This document shows positions 1,263 through 37,909 of a stretch of 64,000 bases of DNA, one piece after another. Source of the stretch: a virus; the IMG/VR virus record IMGVR_UViG_3300029310_000398, positions 1-64,000 of that record; one strand, given 5' to 3'. Numbering within the stretch: the stretch's first letter is position 1; each line of letters starts with the position of its first letter. Under the pieces are notes generated by a model. The model was given only the letters and a program-made list of their open reading frames with translations, searched no databases and was not told where the DNA came from. Both the position numbers and the translations under genes were made by a program.

Positions 1263-1276
1263 AAAGGAGAATACCC

Positions 1277-1510
1277 ATGCAGACATTCTTAGGCGCTGTC
1301 AGAGGTGTTGGTGTGATGCTGTTTGTGGCGTTCCTGCTGGTCGGCTCGTTGTGGCTCGGCCTTCATCACGTCACTTTCATCGGCGAAAAGTTCAAGGGAC
1401 GTACCGGCAGCTTGCTGGCCTACCTTGCACTCATCATCATCTTTGGCGGCGGGCTGGCATTGGCGGTCATTATCTCCATCCAGTGTCCTATCAGCCCGCT
1501 TCATCAGTAG
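1277..1510 (+). CDS. small membrane protein (77 aa, two hydrophobic helices)
   Basis: ATG 1277 is preceded by AAAGGAGAATACCC; the ORF-track start at 1217 lacks an SD. The sequence MQTFLGAVRGVGVMLFVAFLLVGSLWL...LALIIIFGGGLALAVIISI is strongly hydrophobic. Confidence 0.6.
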   Translation: MQTFLGAVRGVGVMLFVAFLLVGSLWLGLHHVTFIGEKFKGRTGSLLAYLALIIIFGGGLALAVIISIQCPISPLHQ

Positions 1511-1563
1511 GAATACATTTTGTTTCCCGTAAGACCTTTAAGGCTGGGAGAAAGGAGAAAATA

Positions 1564-3585: not shown

Positions 3586-3610
3586 TTGTGAAAGGAGAAT
3601 CATCTACTGC

Positions 3611-3642
3611 GAAAAGCGTCCCTGACGGGGCGCTTTTCTTTT
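3611..3642 (+). terminator. intrinsic terminator closing cassette 1
   Basis: GAAAAGCGTCCC-TGAC-GGGGCGCTTTTC stem-loop with one mismatch, followed by TTTTCTTTT. Confidence 0.8.
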
Positions 3643-3654
3643 CGACTAAAACGA

Positions 3655-3855
3655 TTGACAAAATATCAAACTGTGGTAGTATAGAATTATAATCACGAAG
3701 CTATTTTTATAAAGGAGATTATCTCCGTTTTCCAAGTCACCATACGTAAATTCAGACAGTTATCCCAATCTTGGGGTAGCTGTCTTTTTTATATATTTTC
3801 ATACATTTTGAGTTCCCGTAAGTCCTTATCACAGGCAGGGAGAAAGGAGAAAACA
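3655..3855 (+). promoter_or_regulatory. Promoter-leader-terminator module, copy 2 (heads cassette 2)
   Basis: -35 at 3655-3660, TGgTAGTAT 3674-3682, TATAAT 3688-3693. Hairpin GGAGA-TTA-TCTCC 3714-3726. Leader terminator 3754-3785 with T-run to 3790. Conserved RBS block before ATG 3856. CGACTAAAA (3643-3651) abuts the -35. Confidence 0.8.
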
Positions 3856-4440
3856 ATGAGTATCACCAACACACGTCTCGCATACCTCTATCGTGACGCG
3901 GACAACTACAAGGTCCGGCATGAGGTCGTTTTCGCCGGCCAGATGTCGGAGGAAGAAAAGATGCGTATTATCGCCAGTCTCGATGACGGCGAATACTTCA
4001 TCCCCGGCCCTCTCGGTCTGAACGACGAGCGTTTCGGCAGTGAGACGGAGGCCGACCATCCCTTCTTTGAGTTTTGCTACTTTGAGGAGACCACGCATAA
4101 GCCGACGACCGACATCGCCATCGCCGAAATCGTCAAGCGGTTCGAGGACAATGCCCATCTCTGGAAGGATTACGAGACTTCCTTGGAAGACGTTGAACTC
4201 AACGAGGTAAACGACATCAAGATACCCGCACCTGACCCTGAGGAAGACCTCTCCCTTCGCGCCAAGTCCCTCCTGTTCGAAACGCTGGAGCTGTTCCGGA
4301 AGGAAATCAGCCCCAAGTTCTCTGACTGGAAGGATGCCGACGACTGGCTGTTCAGCAGCCTGAGTATCACCAAGGACGAGCTGCAGGCTATCTACGCCGA
4401 CCACGATGTGATGGTCTACGGCGAGTCTGCGGCGGATTGA
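3856..4440 (+). CDS. acidic hypothetical protein (194 aa)
   Basis: ATG 3856 follows GGAGAAAACA; the track start at 3808 reads through the leader. Very D/E-rich sequence, e.g. EDVELNEVNDIKIPAPDPEEDLS. Confidence 0.8.
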   Translation: MSITNTRLAYLYRDADNYKVRHEVVFAGQMSEEEKMRIIASLDDGEYFIPGPLGLNDERFGSETEADHPFFEFCYFEETTHKPTTDIAIAEIVKRFEDNAHLWKDYETSLEDVELNEVNDIKIPAPDPEEDLSLRAKSLLFETLELFRKEISPKFSDWKDADDWLFSSLSITKDELQAIYADHDVMVYGESAAD

Positions 4441-4449
4441 GAGGCTGCT

Positions 4450-4698
4450 ATGGGCATGGGACGAGTGCTAACATGGAAGTTTGTTATCCGCGATAGCGAT
4501 GGCTATACGCTTTGTGCTGCCCCCAAAGTATCCGGCTATGCCTACTATTGGTCAAAGCTGAACCATGATGGGGTGCATCCCCTCGTGTTCAACGATAGGG
4601 CACAGGCGCAAAGCTACCTCGATGCCATGCGTCACAACGAGCCGCGCAACCTCAGATGGAGCCAATGTCGGGTCGAAGGACCGTTCATTGATTTATAA
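4450..4698 (+). CDS. hypothetical protein (82 aa)
   Basis: GAGAGG SD lies 5 nt before the ATG. Tightly packed after the preceding gene. Confidence 0.65.
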   Translation: MGMGRVLTWKFVIRDSDGYTLCAAPKVSGYAYYWSKLNHDGVHPLVFNDRAQAQSYLDAMRHNEPRNLRWSQCRVEGPFIDL

Positions 4699-4725
4699 GG
4701 GTAAAAATTGAAAGGAGAAAAAGAT

Positions 4726-5388
4726 ATGTTCAAAATCATCAGCATCAACGAAACTCAGTTTTTCTGCAACGGCTGCGGGGAGGTATTCGTGTGGGAGTTT
4801 AACACCCCCGACAAGAAACCCCCTAAGGACTGGGATGGGCGGTACGACACCGCTTCCCTGTGCAGCATCAACGTTCCCGATTATCGTGGCGTGCCCGGAC
4901 TGTACCCCTCCGGCTTCGACACCAAGCTCGCCGAATACGATAAGGCAAAGTACGAAGCCTTCCTGAAAGGCGAATATCAGCCTCCTGTGGAAGACATGGA
5001 CTGGTACACGAAGGTGCCGCCCCTGCTGCGCTGGGGTTATTTCACCTGCTGGACCGACAGCCTGAACTTCCCCACCTACATCGCCACTGTGAACGGCCAG
5101 CCGTGTTTGCTGATTATCGCAGAGGCCGGTGAGGAGATGTCCAAAAAGGACGGAAAACGGAACGTCAGCATCCGCAAGGCGCTGATGGAGTCTGGCCGCA
5201 AGCTGGCTGAGAAGCTGAATGCGGATGAGAAGCTGAAGGAGCTGCACGCAGATGTGCTGTTCCCCAAGGACACGGATACACCGTTCTGCCAGTGGGAGCT
5301 GTACGTCGCCATCCCCGTGACAGAGAATGTCGCCTTTGAGGACATCAAGGCCGTAGCGGACGTGATGGACGAGTGCATCGACTACTGA
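4726..5388 (+). CDS. hypothetical protein (220 aa) with an N-terminal CxxC
   Basis: GAAAGGAGAAAAAGAT precedes ATG 4726. The track start at 4708 is a TTG inside the SD region. Confidence 0.75.
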   Translation: MFKIISINETQFFCNGCGEVFVWEFNTPDKKPPKDWDGRYDTASLCSINVPDYRGVPGLYPSGFDTKLAEYDKAKYEAFLKGEYQPPVEDMDWYTKVPPLLRWGYFTCWTDSLNFPTYIATVNGQPCLLIIAEAGEEMSKKDGKRNVSIRKALMESGRKLAEKLNADEKLKELHADVLFPKDTDTPFCQWELYVAIPVTENVAFEDIKAVADVMDECIDY

Positions 5389-5449
5389 TGCCCAAATGAG
5401 GGCGGGGAAGTCCCCGCCCTCTCTTGCGAAGAAGAAAGGAGAATACATT

Positions 5450-6133
5450 ATGACCTTTAAGTCTGACAGACCTGTCGGGCGGTACTGCATTGTGCCGAAT
5501 AGTTTGGTCGTGGACTACGACAAGACCATCATCTTCCGTGACCGGCGAGGTAATCCCGTGTTCACCCTGCCCAATGGCGGGAAACTGCTGATTACCGATG
5601 GGCCTCGTGCTGAACCCAAAGTCTACACCTGCCGGTTCATCGACGAGTCGCACTTCAAGCTGGCCGCAAAGGGCGAGGGTTCTTGGCCGTATCATCACGA
5701 CCAGTTCATTGAGCGTATGGAGTCCATGCGCGGCTGTACCTATCGTCCTGAAAAGTTCGACACACGGCTGGGTGTCTATCAGCGCATCTATTCTGACAGA
5801 ACCCGACTGACAGAGGAAGGAAAGCCTGTCACGTTTCGTGTCATGTTGGCACAGGAGTTTGACGACTTCGAGCGCCGCTGTTATGTGTCCTACTGCCGCA
5901 GCGAGAGCGTTGTGGCTGTGTCCACCTCTATCGTGTATCCCAAGAAAGAACGCTATAAGGAGTTCATTCCTGCAAAGGAATTTCTGGAGATGCTGCACGG
6001 TGAGCGTGCGATGTCCGAAACGCTCAACAGGATGCCGCCGTTTACTGACCTCAATATTGAGTTCATGACGGCGTTCATCACCGACAACGACGAGGTTGGT
6101 CATGTGGAACCCGCCGACGAGAAAGGAGACTGA
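5450..6133 (+). CDS. hypothetical protein (227 aa)
   Basis: GAAAGGAGAATACATT precedes ATG 5450. The track start at 5396 has no SD. Confidence 0.75.
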   Translation: MTFKSDRPVGRYCIVPNSLVVDYDKTIIFRDRRGNPVFTLPNGGKLLITDGPRAEPKVYTCRFIDESHFKLAAKGEGSWPYHHDQFIERMESMRGCTYRPEKFDTRLGVYQRIYSDRTRLTEEGKPVTFRVMLAQEFDDFERRCYVSYCRSESVVAVSTSIVYPKKERYKEFIPAKEFLEMLHGERAMSETLNRMPPFTDLNIEFMTAFITDNDEVGHVEPADEKGD

Positions 6134-8319: not shown

Positions 8320-8656
8320 ACCGAAAAGAGGCGATATCATTATCGCCAAATTCGACCCCACTGATGGGGCGATGAAGTTTGGTGTTACAAGCACCCTTCT
8401 CGTCGTAAGCAACGATACGCTGCACGGAGTAACAGATTTCGTCTGGGTGTGTCCGTTGTCCTACGAAACTGAGTACGGCCCATACCATGTTATACTCGAT
8501 GAGAAGACGTGTCCTCCTCGTAGCGGAACCGTCCTGTGTGAGTATGTAAGCTATTTCAACATCATGGCGAACAAGTACGATGTTGTAGGTCATCTGCCCG
8601 ATGAGGTTCTCACTGAGGTACGGTCTGTCCTCTGTAACATTTTTTCTTGTTCTTAA
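8312..8656 (+). CDS. MazF/PemK/CcdB-fold toxin-like protein (114 aa)
   Basis: The pattern PKRGDIIIAKFDP..G......LVVSND.......VCPLS matches the PemK/MazF N-terminal signature as I remember it. Start overlaps the upstream gene. Confidence 0.45.
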   Translation: MSRPKRGDIIIAKFDPTDGAMKFGVTSTLLVVSNDTLHGVTDFVWVCPLSYETEYGPYHVILDEKTCPPRSGTVLCEYVSYFNIMANKYDVVGHLPDEVLTEVRSVLCNIFSCS

Positions 8657-8661
8657 CCCGC

Positions 8662-8693
8662 GAAAAAGCTCCCTTCGGGGAGCTTTTTCTTTT
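8662..8693 (+). terminator. intrinsic terminator closing cassette 2
   Basis: GAAAAAGCTCCC-TTCG-GGGAGCTTTTTC perfect 12-bp stem followed by TTTT. Confidence 0.85.
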
Positions 8694-8704
8694 GCCTGAA
8701 ATCA

Positions 8705-8903
8705 TTGACAAAATATCAAACTGTGGTAGTATAGAATTATAATTACGAAGCTATTTTTATAAAGGAGATTATCTCCGTTTTCCAAGTCACCTTAAAGAAT
8801 CAAGACAGTTATCCCAATCTTGGGATGGCTGTCTTTTTTTATATATCTACATACATTTTTGTGTTCCCGTAAGTCCTTCAAGGCTGGGAGAAAGGAGAAA
8901 CAA
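8705..8903 (+). promoter_or_regulatory. Promoter-leader-terminator module, copy 3 (heads cassette 3)
   Basis: -35 at 8705-8710, TAGTAT 8727-8732, TATAAT 8738-8743. Small hairpin 8764-8776. Leader terminator 8803-8834 with T-run to 8840. RBS block before GTG 8904. Confidence 0.8.
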
Positions 8904-10067
8904 GTGAAAACCAAAGTTATCTTCGAGCGCACTGGCAAAAACATGGAGGCTATCCGTGAGGAAGTCATCGTCAACGGCGAAATCACTAAGGATGGTTTTG
9001 CTGTAATGATGGCAGCTACCAACGGCGATGGCACATTCGTACCGGCTGTTGTCGGTCTCCATGAGGTGAACGCCGCTGATGAGGCTGTGTATGCGAAGCT
9101 GGTCGGCATCGAATTCTGCGAAGCTAATCTCATCGCAACGTGCAGCGCGGACGTCCTCGTGGGGCGTTTCGTGAACGCGAACGGTGCGTGGGACGAGCTG
9201 CCCGTCAAGGGTCAGGCGCAGAGTGGTACTGCCCGTGTCGGCATTCCCTTTGTCTACGGACTTTACAACTTCACGCCGGTGCGTAACGGGGTGAACAAGA
9301 AGATTTCGTGGTGGATTTCCCGTCAGGGTATCGGCCACGCACTCTACTGCTTCACCTCCAACTACACCGCCGAAATCGGCTATCAGTTCCAGCACATCAG
9401 CAGCTATATCTCTATGTTCGAGGCACAGTTCGGCACCATCGACGGTAAGCCGGCGCCCGTACAGACACCTGCTGGTGGACGAAATGCGGATGATACCCGC
9501 TTCAAGGTCTACCCCAATGTAGGCCCTGCCTACATCGTCGAGGTTCCCTCTGCCGAGGTCGATAACATCGACGATTGGCTGAGTGAGCATATGGAGAGTG
9601 ATGCCACCTTTGTGGAGCTGAAAAGCACCGATTCCACCTCCAAAAACACGTCCTCTGACGACAATGCCGACATCCGCGTGCGGGACATCTGCGGCGATAA
9701 GTGCCAGTGCCATGTCTACTACGACAAGGCTTCCGGCCAGAACAAGATGCGTTTTTGGCTGAGAGCTGCTTTCCCCCGTCCCGCCGATATGATTGAGGTA
9801 CGCACGGCGCTGAAAGCGAACTTCGGCAGCGGCGCCGGCACTCACACCTATGATGATGGCTCCTTCGACGTCATCATTCAGAGGTTGGTGCCGTTCGCTT
9901 TCTCCAATGCGGATTTTGAGAGCTTCGCAGACAATGCGGTTACACTCATTGAGAATGTTCTGCACGCCAAGGCAACCAGTGTGAGCTGGAACGCCGGCCA
10001 TTGTGAGAGCGATGATGATGTACTTCTCACTGCGGAAGAGCAGAGCATCGTAAGCCGGCAAGCGTAA
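8904..10067 (+). CDS. hypothetical protein (387 aa)
   Basis: GTG 8904 has the same spacing from GGAGAAA as the ATGs of the other module copies. An alternative ATG lies at 8943. The track start at 8820 reads through the leader. Confidence 0.7.
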   Translation: MKTKVIFERTGKNMEAIREEVIVNGEITKDGFAVMMAATNGDGTFVPAVVGLHEVNAADEAVYAKLVGIEFCEANLIATCSADVLVGRFVNANGAWDELPVKGQAQSGTARVGIPFVYGLYNFTPVRNGVNKKISWWISRQGIGHALYCFTSNYTAEIGYQFQHISSYISMFEAQFGTIDGKPAPVQTPAGGRNADDTRFKVYPNVGPAYIVEVPSAEVDNIDDWLSEHMESDATFVELKSTDSTSKNTSSDDNADIRVRDICGDKCQCHVYYDKASGQNKMRFWLRAAFPRPADMIEVRTALKANFGSGAGTHTYDDGSFDVIIQRLVPFAFSNADFESFADNAVTLIENVLHAKATSVSWNAGHCESDDDVLLTAEEQSIVSRQA

Positions 10068-13592: not shown

Positions 13593-13816
13593 GTATGGAT
13601 TATCCTTATATCCGTGCATGGAACAGGCTCATGAACGCCACTTCGGACGTCATCGAAAATGAAGTCGCGGCTGCCCGTAAAGAGAAGGCTCCACCGACTT
13701 CAGTTTACAAGCGTAAGGATGGTGTGTGGGAGATTTTCGAGGGAATCGTCCGTGGCGAAACGAAGCAGCAGCTTGCTGAACTTGTAGCAAAGATGGAAAA
13801 GCGCTCTAAGAAGTAA
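13589..13816 (+). CDS. hypothetical protein (75 aa)
   Basis: AAAGGAAATCT precedes GTG 13589; an ATG at 13595 is an alternative. Last gene of cassette 3. Confidence 0.6.
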   Translation: MSMDYPYIRAWNRLMNATSDVIENEVAAARKEKAPPTSVYKRKDGVWEIFEGIVRGETKQQLAELVAKMEKRSKK

Positions 13817-13818
13817 TT

Positions 13819-13848
13819 AAAGAGGCCCGAAAGGGCTTCTTTTTTTTT
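13819..13848 (+). terminator. intrinsic terminator closing cassette 3
   Basis: AAAGAGGCCC-GAAA-GGGCTTCTTT followed by a run of 9 T. Confidence 0.85.
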
Positions 13849-13861
13849 GGCTCTGTAATGA

Positions 13862-14061
13862 TTGACAAAATATCAAACTGTGGTAGTATAGAATTATAAT
13901 TACGAAGCTATTTTTATAAAGGAGATTATCTCCGTTTTCCAAGTCACCATACGTAAATTCAGACAGTTATCCCGTTTCGGGGATAGCTGTCTTTTTTATA
14001 TATTTTCATACATTTGTGTTCCCATAAGTCCTTATCATAGGCAGGGAGAAAGGAGAAATTC
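13862..14061 (+). promoter_or_regulatory. Promoter-leader-terminator module, copy 4 (heads cassette 4)
   Basis: -35 at 13862-13867, TAGTAT 13884-13889, TATAAT 13895-13900. Small hairpin 13921-13933. Leader terminator 13961-13992 has an altered loop and upper stem (CCCGTTTCGGGGA), with T-run to 13997. Confidence 0.8.
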
Positions 14062-14625
14062 ATGACTGACTATCCTAATGAAATTGCCCGTTTAGACGCA
14101 CAGCGTCGAAAGAATCACGATGCCACCGCCTATGAGGAGCTTGACAAGGCCTATACCGAATCCGGTCATACCGTGTTCATTATGGCACTCAACGCCCTCA
14201 TTTCGCTGGGACGTGATACCGTCGCGGCCATGGCGCATCCTGCGGCTATCGCTGCGACTATCCAAGGGAACATCTTTTCCGAGGATTTCAAGCTGGAGGT
14301 CGGACGTATCGCACTGATGATGGCAAACGCCGACATCGACGTTCTGTTGGCCGTTATTCAGCGCATAGTCGTCCCCTTCACTGACCCTCAGGGCAAGCGC
14401 ATCCCGTTCCTGCACCCCAACGGCGACGAGGAGGACGTCTGCCCCGTGTGTGGCGCCGAGGTCGAATATCAGGGCGACCGTGAAATCGACTACAACGATG
14501 GTACGGAGGTGAGCTGGGAATGCCCCGTCTGCAAGGCGTTTGGCAAGGCACTGTACCACGACACCTTCCTCCAGCACGATTCTGTGATTGATGGGAATGG
14601 TGATTGCGTACACGACCGTGTCTGA
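14062..14625 (+). CDS. hypothetical protein (187 aa) with a C-terminal zinc ribbon
   Basis: Conserved RBS block precedes the ATG. CPVCGAEVEY...WECPVCKAFG provides two CxxC pairs. Confidence 0.8.
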   Translation: MTDYPNEIARLDAQRRKNHDATAYEELDKAYTESGHTVFIMALNALISLGRDTVAAMAHPAAIAATIQGNIFSEDFKLEVGRIALMMANADIDVLLAVIQRIVVPFTDPQGKRIPFLHPNGDEEDVCPVCGAEVEYQGDREIDYNDGTEVSWECPVCKAFGKALYHDTFLQHDSVIDGNGDCVHDRV

Positions 14626-19887: not shown

Positions 19888-19936
19888 ATCAAAAAACAGT
19901 GCAAATGTAATAAACGCAATTTGGTGCCTAAAATGA

Positions 19937-20115
19937 TTGACAAAATATCAAACTGTGGTAGTATAGAATTATAATTACGAAGCTATTTTTATAAAGGAGA
20001 TTATCTCCGTTTTCCAAGTCACCACATAAATTCAGACAGTTATCCCAATCTTGGGGTAGCTGTCTTTTTTTATATATTTATTGCATTTTTCGACAACAAA
20101 GAAAGGAGAAACACC
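19937..20115 (+). promoter_or_regulatory. Promoter-leader-terminator module, copy 5 (heads cassette 5)
   Basis: -35 at 19937-19942, TAGTAT 19959-19964, TATAAT 19970-19975. Small hairpin 19996-20008. Leader terminator 20034-20065 with T-run to 20071. This copy lacks the CCCGTAAG..GGGA block and has a plain GAAAGGAGAAA RBS. Confidence 0.8.
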
Positions 20116-20298
20116 ATGAAGTACAAGAAGCTCACCAAACATGAGCGAGACACGCACCCGTCCATTCACTGTACGGGCAGCGTGCGCGGCATGAAGGAAC
20201 GTGGGTTGTGGGACAAGGATGCCGAGTGTGTTCGCTGCGGCAACCACATCTACAACCTGTCCGTTACCATCCCGCCCTACCCTGCTGATGGCTGCTGA
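20116..20298 (+). CDS. hypothetical protein (60 aa)
   Basis: GAAAGGAGAAACACC precedes the ATG. Contains C..(n)..CVRCG cysteines. Confidence 0.65.
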   Translation: MKYKKLTKHERDTHPSIHCTGSVRGMKERGLWDKDAECVRCGNHIYNLSVTIPPYPADGC

Positions 20299-20637: not shown

Positions 20638-20843
20638 GTAAGCATCGTTGGACTATCGAGGAACTGAAGAACGTCAATGACGCTCAGTTCGCTATGGCGA
20701 TTCTGATGGAACGCCGCAGTGAGTTATCGAATCCCTACACCCCGTTCGCACAGCGCCTTACCAGCGTCATCAATACGCTGACGGACATGGCTGTGGATGG
20801 CGGGCTGACAGACGAAGAAAGGAGTAAGAACAATGGCCGCTGA
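20634..20843 (+). CDS. hypothetical protein (69 aa); donor of the duplicated C-terminal tail
   Basis: GAGGTGAGCAGAA precedes GTG 20634. Its C-terminal 35 aa (YTPFAQRLTSV.NTLTDMAVDGGLTDEERSKNNG) recur at the end of the next gene. Confidence 0.65.
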   Translation: MSKHRWTIEELKNVNDAQFAMAILMERRSELSNPYTPFAQRLTSVINTLTDMAVDGGLTDEERSKNNGR

Positions 20844-21619
20844 AATGAGACTTTACCGCGTAACGGTTATCGGCAGCAATGCCGAAAGGAAGCGCGGAAA
20901 AGTGGTGGAAGAGGTCACAGTCAAGGTCGGAACCAAGTGGCTGACGGACGATAACGGTCGGCGTTACTACAAGGTGCCGCTTGAGGACGCAAACCGAAAC
21001 CTCTACTTCCAGCTCAACACCATGTACTGCATGGACTACCGGCTGTATCAGACAGAGCAGGCCGCCAAGGATTACCTTCGGCAAGCGGAACTGCGTGTGG
21101 CGCTTTGCAAGGCGGTGAGCAATTTCGGCTTCAACGCTCCCCTGCCTGTGCTGGAGAAGGTCATGGATACGCTGAAATACACCCCGTTCGCACAGCGTCT
21201 CACCAGCGTCTTCAATACGCTGACGGACATGGCTGTGGATGGCGGGTTGACGGACGAAGAAAGGAGCAAGAACAATGGCTGTTGAGATGAGACTCTACCG
21301 CGTGCCTATTATCGGTAGTAATGCCGAACGGCGGCACGGAAAGGTGGTGGATGAGGTCACGGTCAAGGTTGGAACCAAGTGGCTGACAGACAATAGAGAC
21401 TGTCGATACTACAAGGCTCCTTCCGAAGATGCGAACAGAAATCCCTATTTCCAGCAGAACTCCATGTACTGGAGTACAGATTACCGGCTGTATCAGACGG
21501 AACAGGCTGCCAAGGACTATCACCATCAGGCGGAATTGCTCATAGCTCTTCGCAGAGCCGTTGGCGACTTCGGCTTCAACGCCCCGTTGACCGTGCTGGA
21601 GAAGGTCATGGACACTCTC
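20736..21619 (+). repeat. tandem segmental duplication, 2 x 442 bp
   Basis: Unit 1 (20736-21177) and unit 2 (21178-about 21619) both begin TACACCCCGTTCGCACAGCG. By eye they align at roughly 85-90% identity at the ends and less in the middle. Confidence 0.8.
20833..21285 (+). CDS. hypothetical protein (150 aa), paralog A with a grafted tail
   Basis: GAAAGGAGTAAGAACA precedes the ATG. Residues 1-115 are paralogous to 21275-21643. The tail duplicates the C-terminus of 20634-20843. Confidence 0.7.
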   Translation: MAAEMRLYRVTVIGSNAERKRGKVVEEVTVKVGTKWLTDDNGRRYYKVPLEDANRNLYFQLNTMYCMDYRLYQTEQAAKDYLRQAELRVALCKAVSNFGFNAPLPVLEKVMDTLKYTPFAQRLTSVFNTLTDMAVDGGLTDEERSKNNGC

Positions 21620-21643
21620 AAGGAAGGCGGATGCTTGAAATGA
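21275..21643 (+). CDS. hypothetical protein (122 aa), paralog B
   Basis: GAAAGGAGCAAGAACA precedes the ATG. The opening MAVEMRLYRVPIIGSNAER.. parallels MAAEMRLYRVTVIGSNAER.. Confidence 0.7.
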   Translation: MAVEMRLYRVPIIGSNAERRHGKVVDEVTVKVGTKWLTDNRDCRYYKAPSEDANRNPYFQQNSMYWSTDYRLYQTEQAAKDYHHQAELLIALRRAVGDFGFNAPLTVLEKVMDTLKEGGCLK

Positions 21644-23762: not shown

Positions 23763-24803
23763 ATGGGTAATACATCTATCGGAGCCGCTGCATCTTTCTG
23801 CAACGAGAACACGCTGGTCAAGGTCTACCGCTATAATCCTAAGTACGACAGGTTCGAGACGACCTTCGTTCCTTTCAAGGACATCCGCAAGAGCGATTCT
23901 GTGAGCGTCTTTGCCAGTGATGGGCACGAGATGCACTTTTCCGTTCTCACAAATGCTTCTTTTAAGAAGGACGAGCGATACGGGAACGAGTGCGGTTGGT
24001 CTGTGAAAGTCACTGAGGACGGCGGCAAGACGGAGATGGTTCTTCGTCCCACCGATTTCGCGCCCTACATCATCAGCCTTTCCGTTACCGACGAAGGAGA
24101 GTGGCGCGGCTGCCGGCTGCTTTTCGAAAGCGTCCTCAACGACACCGAAGCTATCGTCAACAATATGCGGGCGCGATTCGAGCCGCGTGTTGCGCCGGAA
24201 AACACCTGCGGGCGGCATTCCGACACAGTTGCGGCCATGGCGAAGAGAGACCTTACTCGTGAGTGGACGGAGCAGTTCGGCTTCCGGCTCATTTCGGACA
24301 GCGTAAACTTCGCCCAGTGCAGTGTGAAGGACATTCTCTCTGATAAGTTCTTCAATCCCCCTGCCATGGAGTTGACGTTCTTCGCCTATTCCGACGGCGA
24401 GTATTCAGCGTCCCCCCTGTTCTTTGCCAAACTGCCCGATTTGGGCGAACGGTACAACAAGCCTGAGGGACGTGCTGCAATCGCAGAACTGCTGCAGAAG
24501 CTGGATGAGATGTACGGCGACCTGCCTGAAGACACAACAAAATGGGCTCTGGAGTATCAGCTTTGGGCTCGTATGCTGCTGGCAGAAGGTGCGGTCATGC
24601 TGAATCCGAAGCACCTCGACCTCCCCGACTGCGCCTACGAATTCAAAACGCTGGCTTTCGGTAATAAAATGCTGAAAGACAGCGGTGACGGTATTGCGTG
24701 GGCAAAGGCTGTCAAAACACCTATCAGCGTAATCGCCGAGGCGTGGGAGAATGACATGAGCGAGTCCGGCGATGAGGCTTTTACCTGCATCGTGACGGGC
24801 TGA
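23763..24803 (+). CDS. hypothetical protein (346 aa), paralog 1 of a tandem pair
   Basis: GAAAGGAGAAAAATT precedes the ATG. It shares FFAKLP.LG....PEG......L.KLDE.YGDLP..T..W.LEYQLWARMLL.EGAVMLNPK with the next gene. Confidence 0.8.
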   Translation: MGNTSIGAAASFCNENTLVKVYRYNPKYDRFETTFVPFKDIRKSDSVSVFASDGHEMHFSVLTNASFKKDERYGNECGWSVKVTEDGGKTEMVLRPTDFAPYIISLSVTDEGEWRGCRLLFESVLNDTEAIVNNMRARFEPRVAPENTCGRHSDTVAAMAKRDLTREWTEQFGFRLISDSVNFAQCSVKDILSDKFFNPPAMELTFFAYSDGEYSASPLFFAKLPDLGERYNKPEGRAAIAELLQKLDEMYGDLPEDTTKWALEYQLWARMLLAEGAVMLNPKHLDLPDCAYEFKTLAFGNKMLKDSGDGIAWAKAVKTPISVIAEAWENDMSESGDEAFTCIVTG

Positions 24804-24817: not shown

Positions 24818-25870
24818 ATGGATATGCCGATTTCGAACAAGCGAAAGCTGCACTGCGACGAGAACGTACTGGTCCACATTGTGCGCTACTGCCATGATAC
24901 GGATGACGCAGATGGCGACGGCGTCAGAGAGGTGGAAATGTACGTCCCCTTCAAGCACATTTGCAAGGGCGATGCCATTGATATTCCTGATAAGGACACC
25001 GACGATGCCTTCAGAACAACCGCCTATGCTGCGGAAGACGCTTCGTACAACGAGGCTAAGGCGGGTGGTTGGTTTGTGCCGGTCGCCTGCACTGGGCAGA
25101 AAGATTACATTCTGAAGCCCGACGATTTCGCACCTTGGCTCGTGACACTGAGCGTTGTGTTCACGAACGGGTCGTCCTGCAAGCTCTTTTTCGAGTGCGT
25201 GGAACGAAGCGAAGAGAAGCTGCGGGCAAACATCCGCAGAATCTTTGACGATGTGCCGACGCTGCGGCATGAGATGGGCTTCGTTGCCCTCGTCCGCCAT
25301 ATGGCATGGAAGTACCTCACACCGGAAAGAACGGAGCCTCTCGGCTTCAGATTCCTTTCGGATGATGTCGTCTGGAGCAACTGCAAAGTGAAGGACATCC
25401 TTCCTGACCGGTTCTTCGCGGCGGCTGACATGAAGCTGACGTTTTACGCCTATGCGGAAGATGAGTATTCTGGGAATCCTCTGTTCTTTGCAAAGCTGCC
25501 GTATCTCGGTACGCATCACGGACATCCTGAAGGTTGTGTGATTTGCGCTTCCATCCTGCGGAAACTGGATGAGCTGTATGGCGACCTGCCGACGGAAACG
25601 TCCCGTTGGTCGCTGGAATACCAGCTCTGGGCGCGTATGCTGCTCTCTGAGGGAGCAGTTATGCTCAATCCGAAGTACATTGACTTGCGCCAAGACGGTG
25701 CGCTTGATGCGCTTCTGGAGGACATTCCGATGATTGATGGTTTCGCCGATGACGTCGCTTGGCGTCGTGTGGCAGGTGTACCCATCGACGAAATCCATGA
25801 AGTGTGGGATGCGAGTTCGGATGATGGTGTCGCTCCGTTCACCTATACCGTCCGAGCAAAAATCCTTTGA
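24818..25870 (+). CDS. hypothetical protein (350 aa), paralog 2
   Basis: GAAAGGAGAAAAACAT precedes the ATG. Collinear similarity to 23763-24803. Confidence 0.8.
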   Translation: MDMPISNKRKLHCDENVLVHIVRYCHDTDDADGDGVREVEMYVPFKHICKGDAIDIPDKDTDDAFRTTAYAAEDASYNEAKAGGWFVPVACTGQKDYILKPDDFAPWLVTLSVVFTNGSSCKLFFECVERSEEKLRANIRRIFDDVPTLRHEMGFVALVRHMAWKYLTPERTEPLGFRFLSDDVVWSNCKVKDILPDRFFAAADMKLTFYAYAEDEYSGNPLFFAKLPYLGTHHGHPEGCVICASILRKLDELYGDLPTETSRWSLEYQLWARMLLSEGAVMLNPKYIDLRQDGALDALLEDIPMIDGFADDVAWRRVAGVPIDEIHEVWDASSDDGVAPFTYTVRAKIL

Positions 25871-25902
25871 TTCTTTCGCTTCAAGACAAACCACATTTTT
25901 TC

Positions 25903-25933
25903 AAAAGAAGCTCCTTCGGGAGCTTCTTTTTTT
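25903..25933 (+). terminator. intrinsic terminator closing cassette 5
   Basis: AAAAGAAGCTCC-TTCG-GGAGCTTCTTTT perfect stem followed by TTT. Confidence 0.85.
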
Positions 25934-25946
25934 GCGCCAAAAGGAA

Positions 25947-26150
25947 TTGACAAAATATCAAACTGTGGTAGTATAGAATTATAATTACGAAGCTATTTTT
26001 ATAAAGGAGATTATCTCCGTTTTCAAGTCACCACAAAGAATCAAGACAGTTACTTCCCTTTTCTGGGAAGTGACTGTCTTTTTCTATATATAACATTTTT
26101 TGGATTCCCGTAAGTCCTTATTACAGGCTGGGAGAAAGGAGAAAAAGACC
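25947..26150 (+). promoter_or_regulatory. Promoter-leader-terminator module, copy 6 (heads cassette 6)
   Basis: -35 at 25947-25952, TAGTAT 25969-25974, TATAAT 25980-25985. Small hairpin 26006-26018. Leader terminator 26044-26079 has a rebuilt 15-bp stem (AGACAGTTACTTCCC/GGGAAGTGACTGTCT), with T-run to 26084. RBS block before ATG 26151. Confidence 0.8.
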
Positions 26151-28028
26151 ATGGCAAATTGTGTACTCTTCAGAAGTAAGAAAGGGTTCGACATCAGTAC
26201 CCTCCCCTTCGGGCTGAACCAAATGCCTAACCGCAGCACGACGACGTTCTCCAAGTGGAATGCGCCGCAGAGACCGTCTATGAAGGGGCAATCTACGCTG
26301 CACGCCTATGCAACCAGAGCATTTCTGGCATATCTGGGTATCCCCGGCTTTGTTGAGGACTATGCTCTGCTGCAGGTCTCTGACAATCTGTGGAGTGCTG
26401 AGTTCCGCGACAACTCTACCGGCACGACCGTGAAGACGCTGCTGTTCACTTATAAGACGGTGTTCCAGACCAATGCGCCTTCTGTCGGTAAACTGGGTGC
26501 CGCCGTGACGATGCCTTCCGGCCAGTGGGCGGGTACTCCGTCTATCGGTTCTGAGTCTGACGACATCGACCTCAGCGGCGCTATGCTGGCAATGACACCC
26601 CAAGTCCTGTCCCTCTACTACGAGGCACCGGAGTTGGCTGTCGTGGATGACAACTCGGAACTCAAGACCGTCCGTGACGAGATTCTCGCCCTGTGCGCCA
26701 AGTACCCCGCTGATTGGGGCGCTCACATGGTGGAAGCATCTACCGCCTTCAACTATCTGTATATCTTCAGTGATATGTTCTACTATGGCTGTGAGACGGG
26801 CAAAGTCCCGCTGAACGTCCAGAACGGGAACATGGATACGTTGACGCGGCAGAAGGTCAACAACGGCGCTTTCAACGGCACCATCATTGTCGGCACACCT
26901 ACCATCATCGGTGGCACAATGGCCGCCAACAGCACCTCAAGCTCTACCAAGGGCATGACCGTGAAGGCTGCCAAGCTCAGATACGCAGCGTGGGCTGACG
27001 CACACCCGTGGACGCCCGACGAGGAACTGCTGATTCCCACCTTCGATGATGACTTCAAGGTTCAGCCTGAGGTTATCGAGATGGCCGACAAAATCGTCGC
27101 TACGTCCAATATGCGCGTACCCTTCCGCAACTTCCTGTGGCGCGGCATTACCGGTTACGGTAAGTCTACCGGCACGAAGGTTCTGGCGTGCATCCTGCAC
27201 ACTCCTCGGCTGGAGCTGACCTGCCATACCGATATGCTGGCGAAGGACCTGATTTCTGAGTTCGTCCCCTGCAATCCCGTGGATGCGGCGCGTGGAGAAC
27301 TTCCCACGTTCGATGAGATTTCCTTCGACCCCGAATCCGCGTGGACGACCATGACGGGCGAGGATGGCACGGGCATCACATCTGAGGAATGCTTCGCAAA
27401 GTATTCTGAGCTGTTGGTTGCCCGCGCCGGCTGCACTTCCCCTGTGAAGGTGGTCGAGTCCGCTTTCGTGAAAGCCGTTTCTCGCGGTTACATCTGCGAG
27501 ATTCAGGAAATCAGCCGTATCAAGGACTCCGGCGTTATGGTCGCACTGAACCAGTACGACCTGCCGGGTGCTATGATTCCGCTGGTGGACGGCGGTTTCA
27601 CGTATCGTCAGAAGGATGCCGTTGTGGTATTCACGGATAACGTCGGCTATGCTTCCTGCCGCCCCATCGACCAGTCTGTTATTCGGCGTTGCCGGATGAT
27701 TTTCGACAGCACTGAAATCGAAAAGCAGGCTATGCTGGAGCGCATCAAGTACAACACCGGCTGGAGCCGTGACGACAAGACGCTGAACGCTCTGTACGAC
27801 GTGTTCGAGCAGATTCGGAGCTACTGCGCCGACAAGGAAATCACGGAAGGTTCCTGCACTATTTGCGAGCTGGAGTCTCTCGTCTGCTGTGTGCAGTGTG
27901 ACGACAGATACATGGCTCATTTGGAAGATTACATTGACACGTGCCTCATCGCCAAATGCACGAATGACCCCGTCGAGCAGAACGAGATTCGTTCCAATGC
28001 GGCGCAGGTCATCAGCAAGGTGGCGTAG
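26151..28028 (+). CDS. AAA+ ATPase, MoxR/CbbQ-like C-terminal module with a roughly 330-aa unknown N-terminal region (625 aa)
   Basis: Walker A WRGITGYGKSTGTK. Walker-B-like YICEIQEISRIK. A downstream VWA partner is the usual MoxR pairing. Confidence 0.6.
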   Translation: MANCVLFRSKKGFDISTLPFGLNQMPNRSTTTFSKWNAPQRPSMKGQSTLHAYATRAFLAYLGIPGFVEDYALLQVSDNLWSAEFRDNSTGTTVKTLLFTYKTVFQTNAPSVGKLGAAVTMPSGQWAGTPSIGSESDDIDLSGAMLAMTPQVLSLYYEAPELAVVDDNSELKTVRDEILALCAKYPADWGAHMVEASTAFNYLYIFSDMFYYGCETGKVPLNVQNGNMDTLTRQKVNNGAFNGTIIVGTPTIIGGTMAANSTSSSTKGMTVKAAKLRYAAWADAHPWTPDEELLIPTFDDDFKVQPEVIEMADKIVATSNMRVPFRNFLWRGITGYGKSTGTKVLACILHTPRLELTCHTDMLAKDLISEFVPCNPVDAARGELPTFDEISFDPESAWTTMTGEDGTGITSEECFAKYSELLVARAGCTSPVKVVESAFVKAVSRGYICEIQEISRIKDSGVMVALNQYDLPGAMIPLVDGGFTYRQKDAVVVFTDNVGYASCRPIDQSVIRRCRMIFDSTEIEKQAMLERIKYNTGWSRDDKTLNALYDVFEQIRSYCADKEITEGSCTICELESLVCCVQCDDRYMAHLEDYIDTCLIAKCTNDPVEQNEIRSNAAQVISKVA

Positions 28029-28107
28029 GCTTGTCCTGAAAGGAGAAGAGAGGCATGGAGCCTCTTTTCTTGCTTTCAGGACCGAAAGCAAGAAAGGAGA
28101 AAACATC

Positions 28108-28530
28108 ATGACTCACAACTATGAGAACGCCAAGTTCTTTAATCACGAGAGCTATAAGGCGCTTTGCGCTAAGGTCGGTGAGTGCATCAAAAACGGCGTC
28201 CAGTACGCTGATAAGATGCTCGACAACATCGAACGGCGCTGCGCCGGTGCTTTCCTCGACTATGTGACGACCGTTGATATGAGCGAAACTCGCATCATCA
28301 TCGCCCATAATCGTCTCGAAGGCGAAGACCTCATCGACACGCTGCAGACTATCGACGCGGGACGCCGGTCGGCACACGAGGCAGCTATGGCTGGATGCAG
28401 CATTCTCAACCGAATGGCTGTCGCCAACGGTATTGACCCCGTGTTCACTGGCAATCCTGAAGACCGTTTGCAGGTGGCAGATTTCTGCCTTGAGTTTACC
28501 GTTGAGATTTTCAAGAACCGGCACAAGTGA
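28108..28530 (+). CDS. hypothetical protein (140 aa) between the ATPase and VWA genes
   Basis: GAAAGGAGAAAACATC precedes ATG 28108. The track start at 27889 lies inside the ATPase gene. Confidence 0.7.
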   Translation: MTHNYENAKFFNHESYKALCAKVGECIKNGVQYADKMLDNIERRCAGAFLDYVTTVDMSETRIIIAHNRLEGEDLIDTLQTIDAGRRSAHEAAMAGCSILNRMAVANGIDPVFTGNPEDRLQVADFCLEFTVEIFKNRHK

Positions 28531-28552
28531 ATTTAGAAAGGAGAAATGACGC

Positions 28553-30781
28553 ATGGACCAGAAATCTATCTGGAGGCAAATCCGTGTGGGTGCCAATGAA
28601 ATGAGCGAGAAGCTCACGGATGCTGACATCTACACCAGTGAAGCGTTTCGGAGTCATGTGCAGGCGACGGTCGATTCGATGACGAAGGACCTTGACAAGC
28701 ACATCTCCGTTTCTCTGATGCATAACCCAAACTCAGACATCACCGCCTGTACTGATGGGAATAATCTTTATCAGAATACGGCGAATAGTGTCATCACGTG
28801 GTATAAGCTCCCCTCCTCACGATTCGCAACGGTTATGGGTATCGTCTATCACGAGTTGGCCCACATCCGATTCCACGACTTCCGCGCCGATGCGCTGGCA
28901 GACAAGGAATTGGAAGAGAACGGCACACTCTACGGACGGATGCCTGAACCGGACAACGAGACAGAACTGGATGAGATGAAGGAGGCGCTGAAGCATCCTG
29001 AATACCGCAAGGTGTTCAAGTCGCTGCGGGACGAACTCGTCAACTGCATCATCGACGCACACGACGAGGAGCGTATGAGCGACTACTACGGCGGCATTGT
29101 TGCACGTGGTATTGAGATGGCAGCATCTTCCCTTCAGGGACAGCTTCACACGCTGGAAGGCTATACGAATAACAAGAATGAGCCGCTGTCTATCATGACA
29201 AGCCTCGTTCTCCAGTTCGCACGATTTGGTGAAATCCTTGTTGCGGATGAGCAGACGCTCTATACCAATGAGTACGCCAAGAAGCTGACAGACATCTCAC
29301 AGGCCATTGAGCTTGCCACCAACACGGATAACCCTAAAGAGCTGTATGCTCAAATCAATGTGATGCTTCTCTTTATGTGGCCTTACATCAAGGACGCAAT
29401 AGATAAGTGTGACAAGCAGCAGAATGCTCAGGCAGGCCAAGGCCAGCAGGGGCAAGGTCAGCAGTCCGGCTCCGACCAGAACGGTCAGGGTGGGCAGCAG
29501 GGCCAGTCCTCTTCCGGCGGCAACTCCGGCGGCGGTCAAAACAGCCAGAACCAGCAGGGCGGCGGAGGTGTCTCCCAGCCCAGCGCAAATGCCATTCAGC
29601 AGGTGCTCCAGCAAATCGCTCAGGGCGCACAGAATGGCGGCGGCTCTCAGATGCCCAAGAACCAGAAGGCTTCCAACGTAGCCAAGCAAGCTACCAAGGA
29701 TGCTCAGTCTGCTGGTAAGAAAAAGGGCAAGAAGGGCGGCAGCGGTTCCGGCGGTAATGATGCCAATAAGGGCAACGTTCCCGCTGCTGTGGCTGGTAAG
29801 AACGGCGATGGAAAGGATAAGAATGAGAAGCAGGAGCAAGCTGACAATATGTTGGCAAATGTCCTGCAGACCATCATCTCCTCCGTTGCAGGCGACATGG
29901 CCGAAGCCCAGATGGAACAGGATTTGAAGTCACAAATCATCGCTGATGTTGACATCATGGACCGCAGCTCCACGCACAAGGGTCATAAAATCGACGTCAA
30001 ACGCGAGGTTGAAGTAACACCCGCAAACATCAAGCTCTACGGAGAAATGATGGAGGATGTGAAACAGTATTCCAAGCGTTTGGCGAAGCTGATGCAGCAG
30101 GAACTGAAAGACCTGCAAGATGGCGATGTCCGCAGAAATCGGATGTACGGTAGGGATATCGTAGCCAATGATATGTGGCGTCCCGACTGCCGGTACTTCA
30201 GCGACACCAAGCTGCCGCAGGACCTGCCTGACATGGCCGTGGCTGTTCTCGTTGACCAGTCCGGCTCCATGTGCGGACAGCGCATGGGCGCCGCTATGAA
30301 GGCCACCATGCTCCTGCATGACTTTGCAGAGCGTGTTCATGTTCCTGTCGCTGTGTACGGTCACAATGTGACCATGCATGGTAGGGTCAACCTGTTCGTC
30401 TATACGGACTTCCTGAAGGCTGGTAAGCGTGACAAGTATCGCCTTGCCAAGCTCTCCACCGGAGGCTGTAACCGTGACGGTGCAGCGCTGGAGGTCGTTG
30501 CGAACCTGCTGAATGCGAGACCTGAGCGCACGAAGCTCCTCATTATCATTTCGGATGGCAAGCCGAATGATGATTCCTATGGTGGAGATTCTGCGGCGAA
30601 GGACATCAAAGACATCGTAGCCCGCAATCGCCGGCGCGGTGTTGAGATTGTTGCAGCAGCTATCGGCGACGACAAAGCGTACCTCAAGAAGATTTACGGC
30701 GACCAGTTCCTTGACATTACTGACCTTTCCACCTTCCCCAAGGCAATGGTCAAAATCGTCAAGAAGCGGTTGAAGGTCTAA
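28553..30781 (+). CDS. HExxH metallopeptidase-like domain, Q/G-rich linker and von Willebrand A domain protein (742 aa)
   Basis: IVYHELAHIRFHDF gives HExxH plus a downstream H. Linker QQNAQAGQGQQGQGQQSGSDQNGQGGQQ... C-terminal VWA with MIDAS LVDQSGSM, plus NRDG and IIISDGKPND. Confidence 0.75.
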   Translation: MDQKSIWRQIRVGANEMSEKLTDADIYTSEAFRSHVQATVDSMTKDLDKHISVSLMHNPNSDITACTDGNNLYQNTANSVITWYKLPSSRFATVMGIVYHELAHIRFHDFRADALADKELEENGTLYGRMPEPDNETELDEMKEALKHPEYRKVFKSLRDELVNCIIDAHDEERMSDYYGGIVARGIEMAASSLQGQLHTLEGYTNNKNEPLSIMTSLVLQFARFGEILVADEQTLYTNEYAKKLTDISQAIELATNTDNPKELYAQINVMLLFMWPYIKDAIDKCDKQQNAQAGQGQQGQGQQSGSDQNGQGGQQGQSSSGGNSGGGQNSQNQQGGGGVSQPSANAIQQVLQQIAQGAQNGGGSQMPKNQKASNVAKQATKDAQSAGKKKGKKGGSGSGGNDANKGNVPAAVAGKNGDGKDKNEKQEQADNMLANVLQTIISSVAGDMAEAQMEQDLKSQIIADVDIMDRSSTHKGHKIDVKREVEVTPANIKLYGEMMEDVKQYSKRLAKLMQQELKDLQDGDVRRNRMYGRDIVANDMWRPDCRYFSDTKLPQDLPDMAVAVLVDQSGSMCGQRMGAAMKATMLLHDFAERVHVPVAVYGHNVTMHGRVNLFVYTDFLKAGKRDKYRLAKLSTGGCNRDGAALEVVANLLNARPERTKLLIIISDGKPNDDSYGGDSAAKDIKDIVARNRRRGVEIVAAAIGDDKAYLKKIYGDQFLDITDLSTFPKAMVKIVKKRLKV

Positions 30782-30791
30782 CAACAATTAA

Positions 30792-30819
30792 AGAGCCACC
30801 CTTCGGGGTGGCTCTCTTT
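30792..30819 (+). terminator. hairpin after the VWA gene (weak or partial terminator)
   Basis: AGAGCCACCC-TTCG-GGGTGGCTCT perfect 10-bp stem, but only a short CTTTG tail. Confidence 0.5.
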
Positions 30820-37821: not shown

Positions 37822-37909
37822 TGGCGGAGAGAGTGGGATTCGAACCCACGGATGCTTTCACATCGCCGGATTTCAAGACCGGTGCTTTCGACCACTCAGC
37901 CATCTCTCC
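37822..37909 (-). tRNA. tRNA-Ser (anticodon UGA), type II with a long variable arm and encoded CCA
   Basis: The reverse complement reads GGAGAGATGGCTGAGTGGTCGAAAGCACCGGTCTTGAAATCCGGCGATGTGAAAGCATCCGTGGGTTCGAATCCCACTCTCTCCGCCA. It has a 7-bp acceptor stem, a GGTTCGAATCC T-arm and a CTTGAAA anticodon loop. The anticodon-stem closing pair is U-U. Confidence 0.9.

Follow-up and report, generated by a model that had tools for sequence, protein, structure and literature searches.

An ATPase and VWA protein pair with a swappable small gene between its members, carried on a mobile element of gut Clostridia

Introduction

What does a MoxR-type AAA+ ATPase do on a mobile element when its partner joins a peptidase-like head to a VWA domain? 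We addressed this question for a locus in the window, a 64,000-nucleotide (nt) stretch of viral DNA (IMG/VR record IMGVR_UViG_3300029310_000398, positions 1 to 64,000), in which three co-directional open reading frames (ORFs) occupy plus-strand positions 26151-30781, each with a strong AAGGAG-type ribosome-binding site. They encode a divergent AAA+ ATPase, a small DUF3232 protein and a VWA protein with an HExxH motif in its N-terminal domain. A first-pass annotation, made from the sequence alone, had described these genes as a three-gene module opening the sixth cassette of the element; this description holds, as the ORFs are present and the sixth copy of a repeated promoter-leader element lies directly upstream. 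Our analysis revealed that the core of the locus is the ATPase and VWA pair, with a small swappable gene between its two members, on a mobile element of gut Clostridia. We consider that the pair most likely acts as an ATP-dependent, client-specific remodeller or protease of the MoxR-VWA kind, having the layout of CobS/CobT, NorQ/NorD and CbbQ/CbbO, and we give this interpretation a probability of roughly 55%.

Conservation of the ATPase and VWA pair

To define the conserved unit, we relied on a scan of species-representative genomes, which identified 25 loci in Oscillospiraceae, Lachnospiraceae, Eubacterium and related taxa. The VWA match adjoins the ATPase downstream in every locus with downstream DNA. 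A full VWA ORF was present in 21 loci, 19 of which start it 9-97 nt after the ATPase match or overlap with it; the exceptions to this tight spacing, L001 and L026, each contain an intervening small gene, which in L026 is a different ORF (71 amino acids, aa) at the DUF3232 position. DUF3232 itself was absent at 20 of the 21 related loci with a readable junction between ATPase and VWA genes, and it separates the pair only in the window, in L001 (64-67% identical) and in near-identical contigs. In eleven loci of the Lachnospiraceae/Eubacterium type, a gene encoding a DUF4116-repeat protein follows the VWA gene (Table 1). The pair and the DUF4116 gene sit there among housekeeping genes, with synteny kept across four genomes and with transporters, MurJ, an FAD oxidase, a rhomboid protease and a radical-SAM enzyme in the flanks, so the family is not confined to mobile elements.

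Since the pair is conserved and the third gene is clade-specific, the conserved unit is the ATPase and VWA pair and not the trio. The first-pass annotation had expected the three genes to be conserved together, a claim that failed the co-occurrence check: only the pair is kept, and DUF3232 is a lineage-specific insertion. Its recognition of a MoxR-type AAA+/VWA pair is supported by the PDB relatives of the ATPase (CbbQ/NorQ) and of the VWA protein (CobT/NorD) and by the adjacency of the two genes in related loci.

Both proteins are also matched by one gene in other hosts. The Enterococcus faecium plasmid p114-2 (L032, 6845-9073) carries a single annotated 742-aa 'AAA family ATPase' gene that matches both, as do the Listeria phage records OR848507.1 and OR847514.1; the single-gene record is 31% identical to the AAA+ core of the ATPase and 35% identical to the VWA domain. 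The E. faecium gene leaves no room for the zincin head and has a DUF6530 gene upstream. As read from these alignments, the E. faecium and Listeria single gene is consistent with ATPase and VWA domains that work together. Plasmid and phage collections, searched for near-identical DNA, gave no match.

A distant pair (25-36% identical) follows a gene for single-stranded DNA-binding protein (SSB) at positions 214-6051 of MT835792.1 (L033), a 27.9-kb unverified 'Bacteriophage sp.' record. This record also encodes an NAD-dependent DNA ligase and an invertase, and none of its ten large ORFs that were scanned matched a phage structural family.

The VWA protein

The VWA protein is composed of an N-terminal domain, a low-complexity linker and a C-terminal VWA domain. 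No Pfam model and no PDB sequence matched the N-domain. A full-length query was swamped by low-complexity words (10 matches) and a word search with the N-domain only returned 2, and an exhaustive search of representative sequences was used instead. A profile of the N-terminal 290 residues identified 921 cluster representatives (50% identity), 713 of them at E <= 1e-10, nearly all being 650-850 aa long with the domain at the N-terminus. Residues T67, G96, H100, E101, H104, G124, N164, D168 and E172 were invariant across 30 diverse members. Of 155 complete family representatives, 154 have the HExxH motif; N-x3-D-x3-E occurs in 151 of 154 and MIDAS, the VWA domain's adhesion site that depends on metal ions, in 137 of 158; such high counts across the family indicate that the motifs are not due to chance.

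An AlphaFold2 (AF2) model of the N-domain, based on an alignment made from the search matches, had a pLDDT of 95.4 and a pTM of 0.89. It contains, in order, helices, a three-stranded sheet, the HExxH helix and then approximately nine helices. The best PDB folds were those of the minigluzincins abylysin, selecase and jannalysin, followed by Wss1 and the M48 protease BepA, and the domain models as a minigluzincin/M48-like fold. Gluzincins have HExxH on a helix that follows the sheet, together with a downstream acidic ligand; the motifs and the order of secondary structure in the N-domain agree with this arrangement, with PDB fold matches of weak E value. Based on the conserved motifs and the model, the zincin head is probably active.

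Comparison with the BFVD collection of viral models placed the N-domain beside the N-terminal parts of phage 'VWFA' or 'CobT-like' proteins (580-810 aa), with probability 1.0, E values down to 5e-5 and TM scores of 0.44-0.56; the viruses concerned include ones that infect Gordonia, Brevibacterium and Haloarcula, and uncultured tailed phages. Alignment of profiles by hhalign gave 97.3% probability and E 2.4e-11 for the N-domain against gp77 of Bacteroides phage BS162P1. Judged by these comparisons, the N-domain is homologous to the N-domains of phage 'CobT-like' VWA proteins. Both BS162P1 gp77 and gp40 of Vibrio phage ICP2 (a 'CobT subunit') contain HExxH, N-x3-D-x3-E and MIDAS, and a gene encoding an AAA+ protein adjoins each of them.

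The linker of 155 aa is rich in G (21%), Q (21%), A (11%), N (10%), K (10%) and S (9%), has a hydrophobic fraction of 0.05-0.15 and, based on this composition, is probably disordered. For the VWA domain, the Pfam models CobT_C (46.8 bits) and VWA (41.5 bits) both scored above their cutoffs, and among PDB sequences CobT (9uka) was the best match and NorD (9qhd) the second. Residues N640 and D668 align to N518 and D546 of CobT. Among PHROG families, the protein matched one of no assigned function and PHROG 17276, 'CobT subunit'.

These results largely agree with the first-pass annotation of this protein. The HExxH metallopeptidase-like head that it had described is supported by the motif at residues 99-109, by the family-wide counts and by the zincin-like model. 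It had also proposed a Q/G/K-rich linker of about 130 aa, which is indeed of low complexity, with the length to be amended to 155 aa and the composition to G/Q/A/N/K/S. Of its MIDAS pattern DQSGS...T...D, the first element and the final aspartate (D668) stand, and the position given as T is N640, as in CobT.

The ATPase

The ATPase combines a family-specific N-domain with an AAA+ module that is MoxR/CbbQ-like but very divergent. Its sole relatives among PDB sequences were MoxR proteins of the CbbQ/NorQ type, at E 5e-3 with the single sequence; the family profile, too, matched no PDB proteins but those of this type (E 4.7e-5 and 9e-4). We identified 114 homologues in a large protein collection, most of them spanning the full length including the N-domain. 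Nearly all are annotated as 'hypothetical protein' or 'AAA family ATPase', and the named ones all belong to Clostridia. Walker A (GxxxxGK[ST]) is present in 107 of the 114. The canonical Walker B sequence hhhhDE does not occur: the aligned residues are C-E-I-Q-E, with Q452 in place of the aspartate, and this E-h-Q-E form was found in 103 of 107 homologues, E450 and the catalytic glutamate E453 being invariant. The sensor-1 asparagine (TDNxGY) and an RR motif are retained in the AAA+ part, and an insert of about 60 aa between Walker A and Walker B is missing from one subclade.

Upstream of the AAA+ module, a variable domain covers approximately residues 1-260 and a conserved pre-AAA segment continues to about residue 330. 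The non-AAA extension of about 330 aa that had been noted at first pass is thus real, and so is its lack of a recognised family. An AF2 model of residues 1-300 (pLDDT 86.5, pTM 0.83) had no fold relative in a Foldseek search of the PDB (best E 0.07, TM below 0.2), a profile search against PDB sequences returned nothing for the N-domain, and no Pfam family matched it.

Exchange of DUF3232 and ATPase N-domain alleles

The small protein matches DUF3232 (PF11554) with 60.1 bits against a cutoff of 27.4 (E 3e-16) and, in the PDB, the 'uncharacterized protein' 2rdc (E 5.7e-8). We found no mention of DUF3232 in the literature, and a metagenome scan centred on it returned close alleles only.

Differences among closely related contigs are concentrated in this gene and in the ATPase N-domain. 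An ATPase 100% identical to that of the window is encoded on IMG/VR contigs of 105-191 kb (L034-L036, L042), classed viral by IMG/VR, and a second IMG/VR group (L037-L048) encodes an ATPase with 85-86% identity. Between this second group and the window, the VWA protein and its neighbours are 93-98% identical, with synonymous divergence (dS) of 0.2-0.4; the ATPase N-domain has 76% aa identity, dS 1.8 and a ratio of nonsynonymous to synonymous divergence (dN/dS) of about 0.1, and DUF3232 is approximately 70% identical, with dS 2.6-3.1. In L035 and L042, the ATPase and VWA genes are 99-100% identical to those of the window, and identity is 64-74% over exactly 28098-28498, the DUF3232 gene. Overall, four classes of DUF3232 alleles exist, sharing 60-72% aa identity, with a variable N-terminal half and a conserved C-terminal half. 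The dS between alleles is 1.5-3.1, in contrast to 0.04-0.3 in the flanks.

Positive selection was considered as the source of this variability and ruled out, as dN/dS is 0.04-0.14 everywhere. Such low values indicate exchange of old alleles by recombination and not ongoing positive selection. Based on these sequence comparisons, DUF3232 is an insertion specific to the lineage of the window, where recombination exchanges its alleles as a cassette. The ATPase and DUF3232 genes are separated by a 79-nt spacer that contains a short hairpin, which is consistent with an arrival of DUF3232 along with intergenic DNA of its own. The ATPase N-domain and DUF3232 would be the best candidates for parts that choose the client (specificity) or regulate the pair.

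Table 1. Positions of the module and of other features in the window and in related loci (residues refer to the protein named; loci other than the window are indicated)
Feature	Position	Strand	Remarks
ATPase gene	26151-28028	+	625 aa
ATPase N-terminal domain	26151..26930	+	~residues 1-260; family-specific, fast-diverging, mosaic
Conserved pre-AAA segment and divergent MoxR/AAA_5-type AAA+ module	26931..28028	+	
Walker A GITGYGKS	27144-27167	+	ATPase residues 332-339
Walker B position YICEIQE (E-I-Q-E)	within 27489-27509	+	ATPase residues 447-453
Sensor-1 TDNVGY	27633-27650	+	ATPase residues 495-500
SVIRR	27675-27689	+	ATPase residues 509-513
Short GC hairpin, then TTTCTT	28049..28065	+	inside ATPase-DUF3232 spacer
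DUF3232 gene	28108-28530	+	140 aa
HExxH-linker-VWA gene	28553-30781	+	742 aa
Zincin-like N-domain	28553..29407	+	VWA protein residues 1-285
YHELAHIRFHD	28850-28864 (HELAH)	+	VWA protein residues 99-109; HELAH residues 100-104
N164-x3-D168-x3-E172	29042-29068	+	VWA protein N-domain
Low-complexity linker, G/Q/N/K/S-rich	29408..29872	+	VWA protein residues 286-440
CobT_C-type VWA domain	29873..30781	+	C-terminal
MIDAS DQSGS (D568/S570/S572)	30254-30268	+	VWA protein residues 568-572
MIDAS N640	30470-30472	+	
MIDAS D668	30554-30556	+	
GC-rich hairpin, 12 bp	30790..30817	unassigned	directly 3' of VWA stop codon
Sixth cassette head	25898..26157	+	upstream terminator, promoter, invariant leader, hairpin and T-run, conserved ribosome-binding-site region
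Promoter TTGACA-16-TAGTAT(AGAAT)	25947-25974	+	sigma-70-type, invariant; part of sixth cassette head
Hairpin of 16 bp plus T-run	26043-26080	+	leader end of sixth cassette head
Six cassette-head copies	4-241, 3604-3863, 8654-8914, 13812-14071, 19899-20123, 25898-26157	+	same-strand cassettes
Partial 3' copy of cassette head	1513-1568		
Tandem paralogue pair, cassette 5	20833-21285 / 21275-21643		83% nt identity
Tandem paralogue pair, cassette 5	23763-24803 / 24818-25870		~41% aa identity
tRNA gene	37825-37909	-	between accessory cassettes and block of flotillin, nuclease and topoisomerase III
Repeat-rich proteins	52469-58099 and 59881-63945	-	1876 and 1354 aa; ~125-aa repeats (372-399 nt period)
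DUF4116-repeat protein	L014-L022, L024, L031 (e.g. L031:14096-14854)		~250 aa; after VWA gene in eleven Lachnospiraceae/Eubacterium-type loci

Cassette heads and element context

Immediately in front of the ATPase gene lies copy six of a promoter and leader element of about 240 nt that recurs in the window and is here called the cassette head (Table 1). Every head consists of an upstream terminator, an invariant promoter (TTGACA...TAGTATAGAAT), an invariant leader of about 60 nt that holds a small GGAGAT/ATCTCC hairpin, a GACAG...CTGTC hairpin of 12-16 bp with a T-run, and a conserved ribosome-binding-site region. Related loci contain 55 matches to the head, among which the interior of the hairpin covaries; a search of Rfam matched no family. 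All six cassettes look co-regulated by the head, which would be an attenuator or antitermination target that they share close to the promoter, and the combination of a shared promoter with a terminator-like leader hairpin suggests regulated read-through. At the other end of the module, the hairpin that follows the VWA stop codon may mark the end of the three-gene transcription unit, its T-run on the plus strand being weak.

The element is mobile. The left half of the window is composed of six same-strand cassettes under the repeated head, in which most genes have no Pfam family and the named ones encode a DUF4942 protein, a zeta toxin, Fic and an HD-domain protein. In the right half, a tRNA gene accompanies genes for topoisomerase III, for a secreted nuclease and for two very large secreted proteins rich in repeats. 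Topoisomerase III is shared with the related Oscillospiraceae loci, which also carry a primase. The tRNA gene may mark a site of integration or else belong to the element. The 1876-aa repeat-rich protein has a signal-peptide-like N-terminus, and a 507-aa protein is encoded between the two large ones.

Proposed mechanism and alternative explanations

The proposed mechanism is modelled on NorQD and CobST, in which the MoxR hexamer holds the VWA domain by a pore finger or shaft, the MIDAS binds carboxylates of the client, and the adaptor relays ATP hydrolysis to remodel that client (PMC9976466, PMC13036017, bioRxiv 10.64898/2026.07.21.739949). Five other cassettes have the same promoter as the module, which would be transcribed through a leader with a terminator-like hairpin at its end. 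By analogy with these systems, the ATPase hexamer would grip the VWA domain, the adaptor N-domain would dock on the ATPase ring and the MIDAS would bind an acidic patch of the client protein; ATP hydrolysis would then pull or twist the adaptor, and the client would be remodelled. The zincin site would probably go on to cleave the remodelled client or a segment of it. The catalytic residues are under strict purifying selection in this family as in ICP2 and BS162P1, which suggests that a remodelled client is probably cleaved. In addition, the succession of three-strand sheet, HExxH helix and helical bundle in the N-domain is the same topology as described for CobT_N, and it counts in favour of this interpretation.

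Several observations weigh against this interpretation. Peptidase activity is predicted from motifs and a model, in which the PDB zincin fold matches have a probability of 0.7-0.9 yet E values of only about 0.5-1, and the counterpart N-domains of CobT and NorD dock or confer specificity, with no known proteolysis. AAA_5 was the only Pfam family that approached the ATPase, at a sub-threshold 19.8 bits against a cutoff of 22, and the replacement of the Walker B aspartate by glutamine in nearly all homologues may render ATP hydrolysis slow or atypical. Finally, no conserved candidate client gene was found beside the pair in the related loci.

An extension of the remodeller or protease interpretation, which we offer as distinctly doubtful, is that the pair is a retargetable ATP-driven zinc protease used by mobile elements and phages against host proteins, the ATPase N-domain and DUF3232 forming a swappable specificity module whose alleles have long been kept by host-element conflict. 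If true, the annotation of the viral 'cobS/cobT' genes, which are widespread, as vitamin-B12 genes would be wrong, and they would belong to the same protease class. With a host protein as client, the pair would represent a new class of ATP-dependent mobile-element effector, and a common mis-annotation would be corrected. Many phages have peptidase-headed MoxR-VWA pairs among their core genes, mostly under the annotation of cobaltochelatase subunits. The invariant peptidase site contradicts this usual 'CobT' annotation. The family of the window comprises at least 921 clusters (50% identity), with neither N-domain covered by Pfam. The natural swaps of DUF3232 and the ATPase N-domain mark the likeliest specificity parts and make the question of which client is grabbed or cut a tractable one.

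Among the alternatives, the pair could be an anti-defence or host-takeover effector, as the first-pass annotation had suggested, made early after entry of the element to remove or cleave a host defence or stress protein, with the alleles of the ATPase N-domain and DUF3232 tracking its targets. This would fit the co-directional array of accessory cassettes with its DUF4942 protein, zeta toxin, Fic and HD-domain protein, the topoisomerase III and primase of the related Oscillospiraceae loci, and the location of the distant member in MT835792.1 downstream of an SSB gene; an exchange of alleles precisely at the limits of a gene or domain, at deep dS and low dN/dS, is moreover the pattern expected of long-lived alternative alleles. 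However, Lachnospiraceae carry the pair in chromosomal-looking contexts, the Lachnospiraceae/Eubacterium subclade lying amid housekeeping genes with conserved synteny, and this weakens an anti-defence role. No known anti-defence domain occurs in the module, a survey of leading regions makes no mention of such pairs, and we found no literature source that lists them as anti-defence. The window contains no relaxase, type IV secretion system gene or origin of transfer (oriT), and without oriT or relaxase a 'leading region' is not established. We regard this explanation as unlikely.

We consider it quite unlikely that the pair is an assembly chaperone or maturation protease for a structure that the element encodes (for example a virion, a tail, a pilus or a large surface adhesin). 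Such a role has been proposed for the MoxR and metallopeptidase-vWA pairs of jumbo phages and shown for the tail of Acidianus two-tailed virus (ATV; PMC7824862), and a genuine phage protein has an N-domain homologous to that of the window protein, with structurally similar domains in many tailed viruses. The near-identical contigs of 105-191 kb that IMG/VR classes as viral, and the surface proteins of 1876 and 1354 aa encoded in the window, would also agree with it. Against these points, a PHROG scan of ten large window proteins revealed no phage structural hallmark, no structural gene is co-conserved with the pair, and the chromosomal subclade has no such neighbours.

Defence borne by the element, of the abortive-infection type, has a precedent (Kaur et al. 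2020, PMC7159879) in ternary conflict systems built on MoxR and vWA; the variable third gene would here be DUF3232, DUF4116 or another. The third component indeed differs by clade in our family (DUF3232, the DUF4116 protein or the 71-aa ORF of L026), and the alleles are mosaic. However, none of the three proteins matched PADLOC-DB 2.0 at E <= 0.01, and neither they nor their immediate neighbours contain a VMAP, iSTAND, FtsH or beta-propeller component or a toxic effector domain fused to the vWA protein. The bpMoxR model misses the window ATPase, yet it matches the neighbouring canonical MoxR in L021. Taken together, these observations make a defence function very unlikely.

Gut Clostridia normally use an anaerobic, CobN-independent route to vitamin B12, which counts against the last alternative, a genuine CobS/CobT cobaltochelatase. 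The idea of an auxiliary metabolic pair that hijacks host CobN, as hypothesized for viral cobST clusters (PMC8651126), draws on the CobT_C match, on CobT as best PDB match, on PHROG 17276 and on an identical three-part layout (bioRxiv 10.64898/2026.07.21.739949), but we rejected it as extremely improbable on the score for the TIGR01651 model (21 against a cutoff of 759), on the lack of a CobN-sized gene (at least 1000 aa) near any listed pair, on an ATPase with no detectable similarity to the CobS-like partners in ICP2 and BS162P1, and on a strictly conserved peptidase site that chelation does not explain.

Comparison with known systems

The family resembles several described systems, each in different parts. 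The proteins with a DUF2201_N domain (putative metallopeptidase) and a DUF2201 domain (VWA-like) share the zincin-like head, the VWA-like tail and the MoxR neighbour. Membership in this group was ruled out, as no Pfam match was obtained and hhalign against a genuine member gave a probability of 0.2%. A pair of this kind, with a canonical MoxR (AAA_5/bpMoxR) and a DUF2201_N/DUF2201 protein, does occur in L020-L022 (e.g., L021:1056-4003, minus strand), approximately 5 kb from the family pair, with galactose-utilisation genes between the two.

NorQ/NorD and CbbQ/CbbO are MoxR/VWA remodellers that insert metal into nitric oxide reductase (NOR) and activate Rubisco, respectively (PMC9976466, PMC13036017). 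They include the best PDB relatives of the ATPase and, with NorD, the second-best relative of the VWA domain, and they follow the same adaptor logic of N-domain, linker and VWA domain, in which the N-domain is target-specific (PMC9976466, PMC13036017). In contrast to our family, the NorD and CbbO N-domains have no peptidase motif and are unrelated to that of the window, and the clients are encoded nearby (nor, cbb), whereas no conserved client gene adjoins window-type pairs.

The likeness to CobS/CobT (PDB 9uka series) includes the three-part adaptor layout, the aligned MIDAS and CobT_C regions and the MoxR-class AAA+ motor. CobT has an M48C-like N-domain, composed of a three-strand sheet and eight helices, that docks on CobS, followed by a disordered linker of about 90 aa and a VWA domain whose MIDAS is D/S/S/N/D (bioRxiv 10.64898/2026.07.21.739949); a disordered adaptor linker is common to CobT and NorD (bioRxiv 10.64898/2026.07.21.739949; PMC9976466). 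However, TIGR01651, the CobT equivalog of NCBIfam, fell far below its cutoff, and the window N-domain has no detectable sequence similarity to CobT_N. The peptidase site is strictly conserved in the window family, and the CobT paper is silent on zinc and proteolysis (bioRxiv 10.64898/2026.07.21.739949). No cobalamin context was found, no large gene of CobN size flanks the pair in the 15 related loci listed, and the only window proteins of at least 1000 aa are the two repeat-rich secreted ones. The first-pass annotation had named a match to housekeeping CobS/CobT, with intact cobalamin context, as the result that would speak against it; the layout of CobS/CobT was found and the cobalamin context was not.

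The closest resemblance is to the 'CobS/CobT-like' pairs of phages (BS162P1 gp76-77, ICP2 gp40-41 and the CobT-like protein of Gordonia phage GMA7), in keeping with the MoxR and 'metallopeptidase-vWA' pairs already described in jumbo phages (Iyer et al. 2021, PMC7824862). They share the adaptor layout with HExxH, N-x3-D-x3-E and a DxSGS/N/D MIDAS, the homologous N-domain, the adjacent AAA+ gene and carriage on mobile elements. In contrast to these pairs, the window ATPase carries about 260 aa of additional N-domain, its Walker B form is E-x-Q-E, and it has no BLASTP similarity to the partner ATPases of ICP2 and BS162P1. The linker is G/Q-rich and not acidic, a DUF3232 gene is inserted, and the family forms a large cellular radiation in Clostridia that includes chromosomal copies. 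The adaptor layout is thus known, and what is new is that the Clostridial family constitutes an unannotated branch with extra parts.

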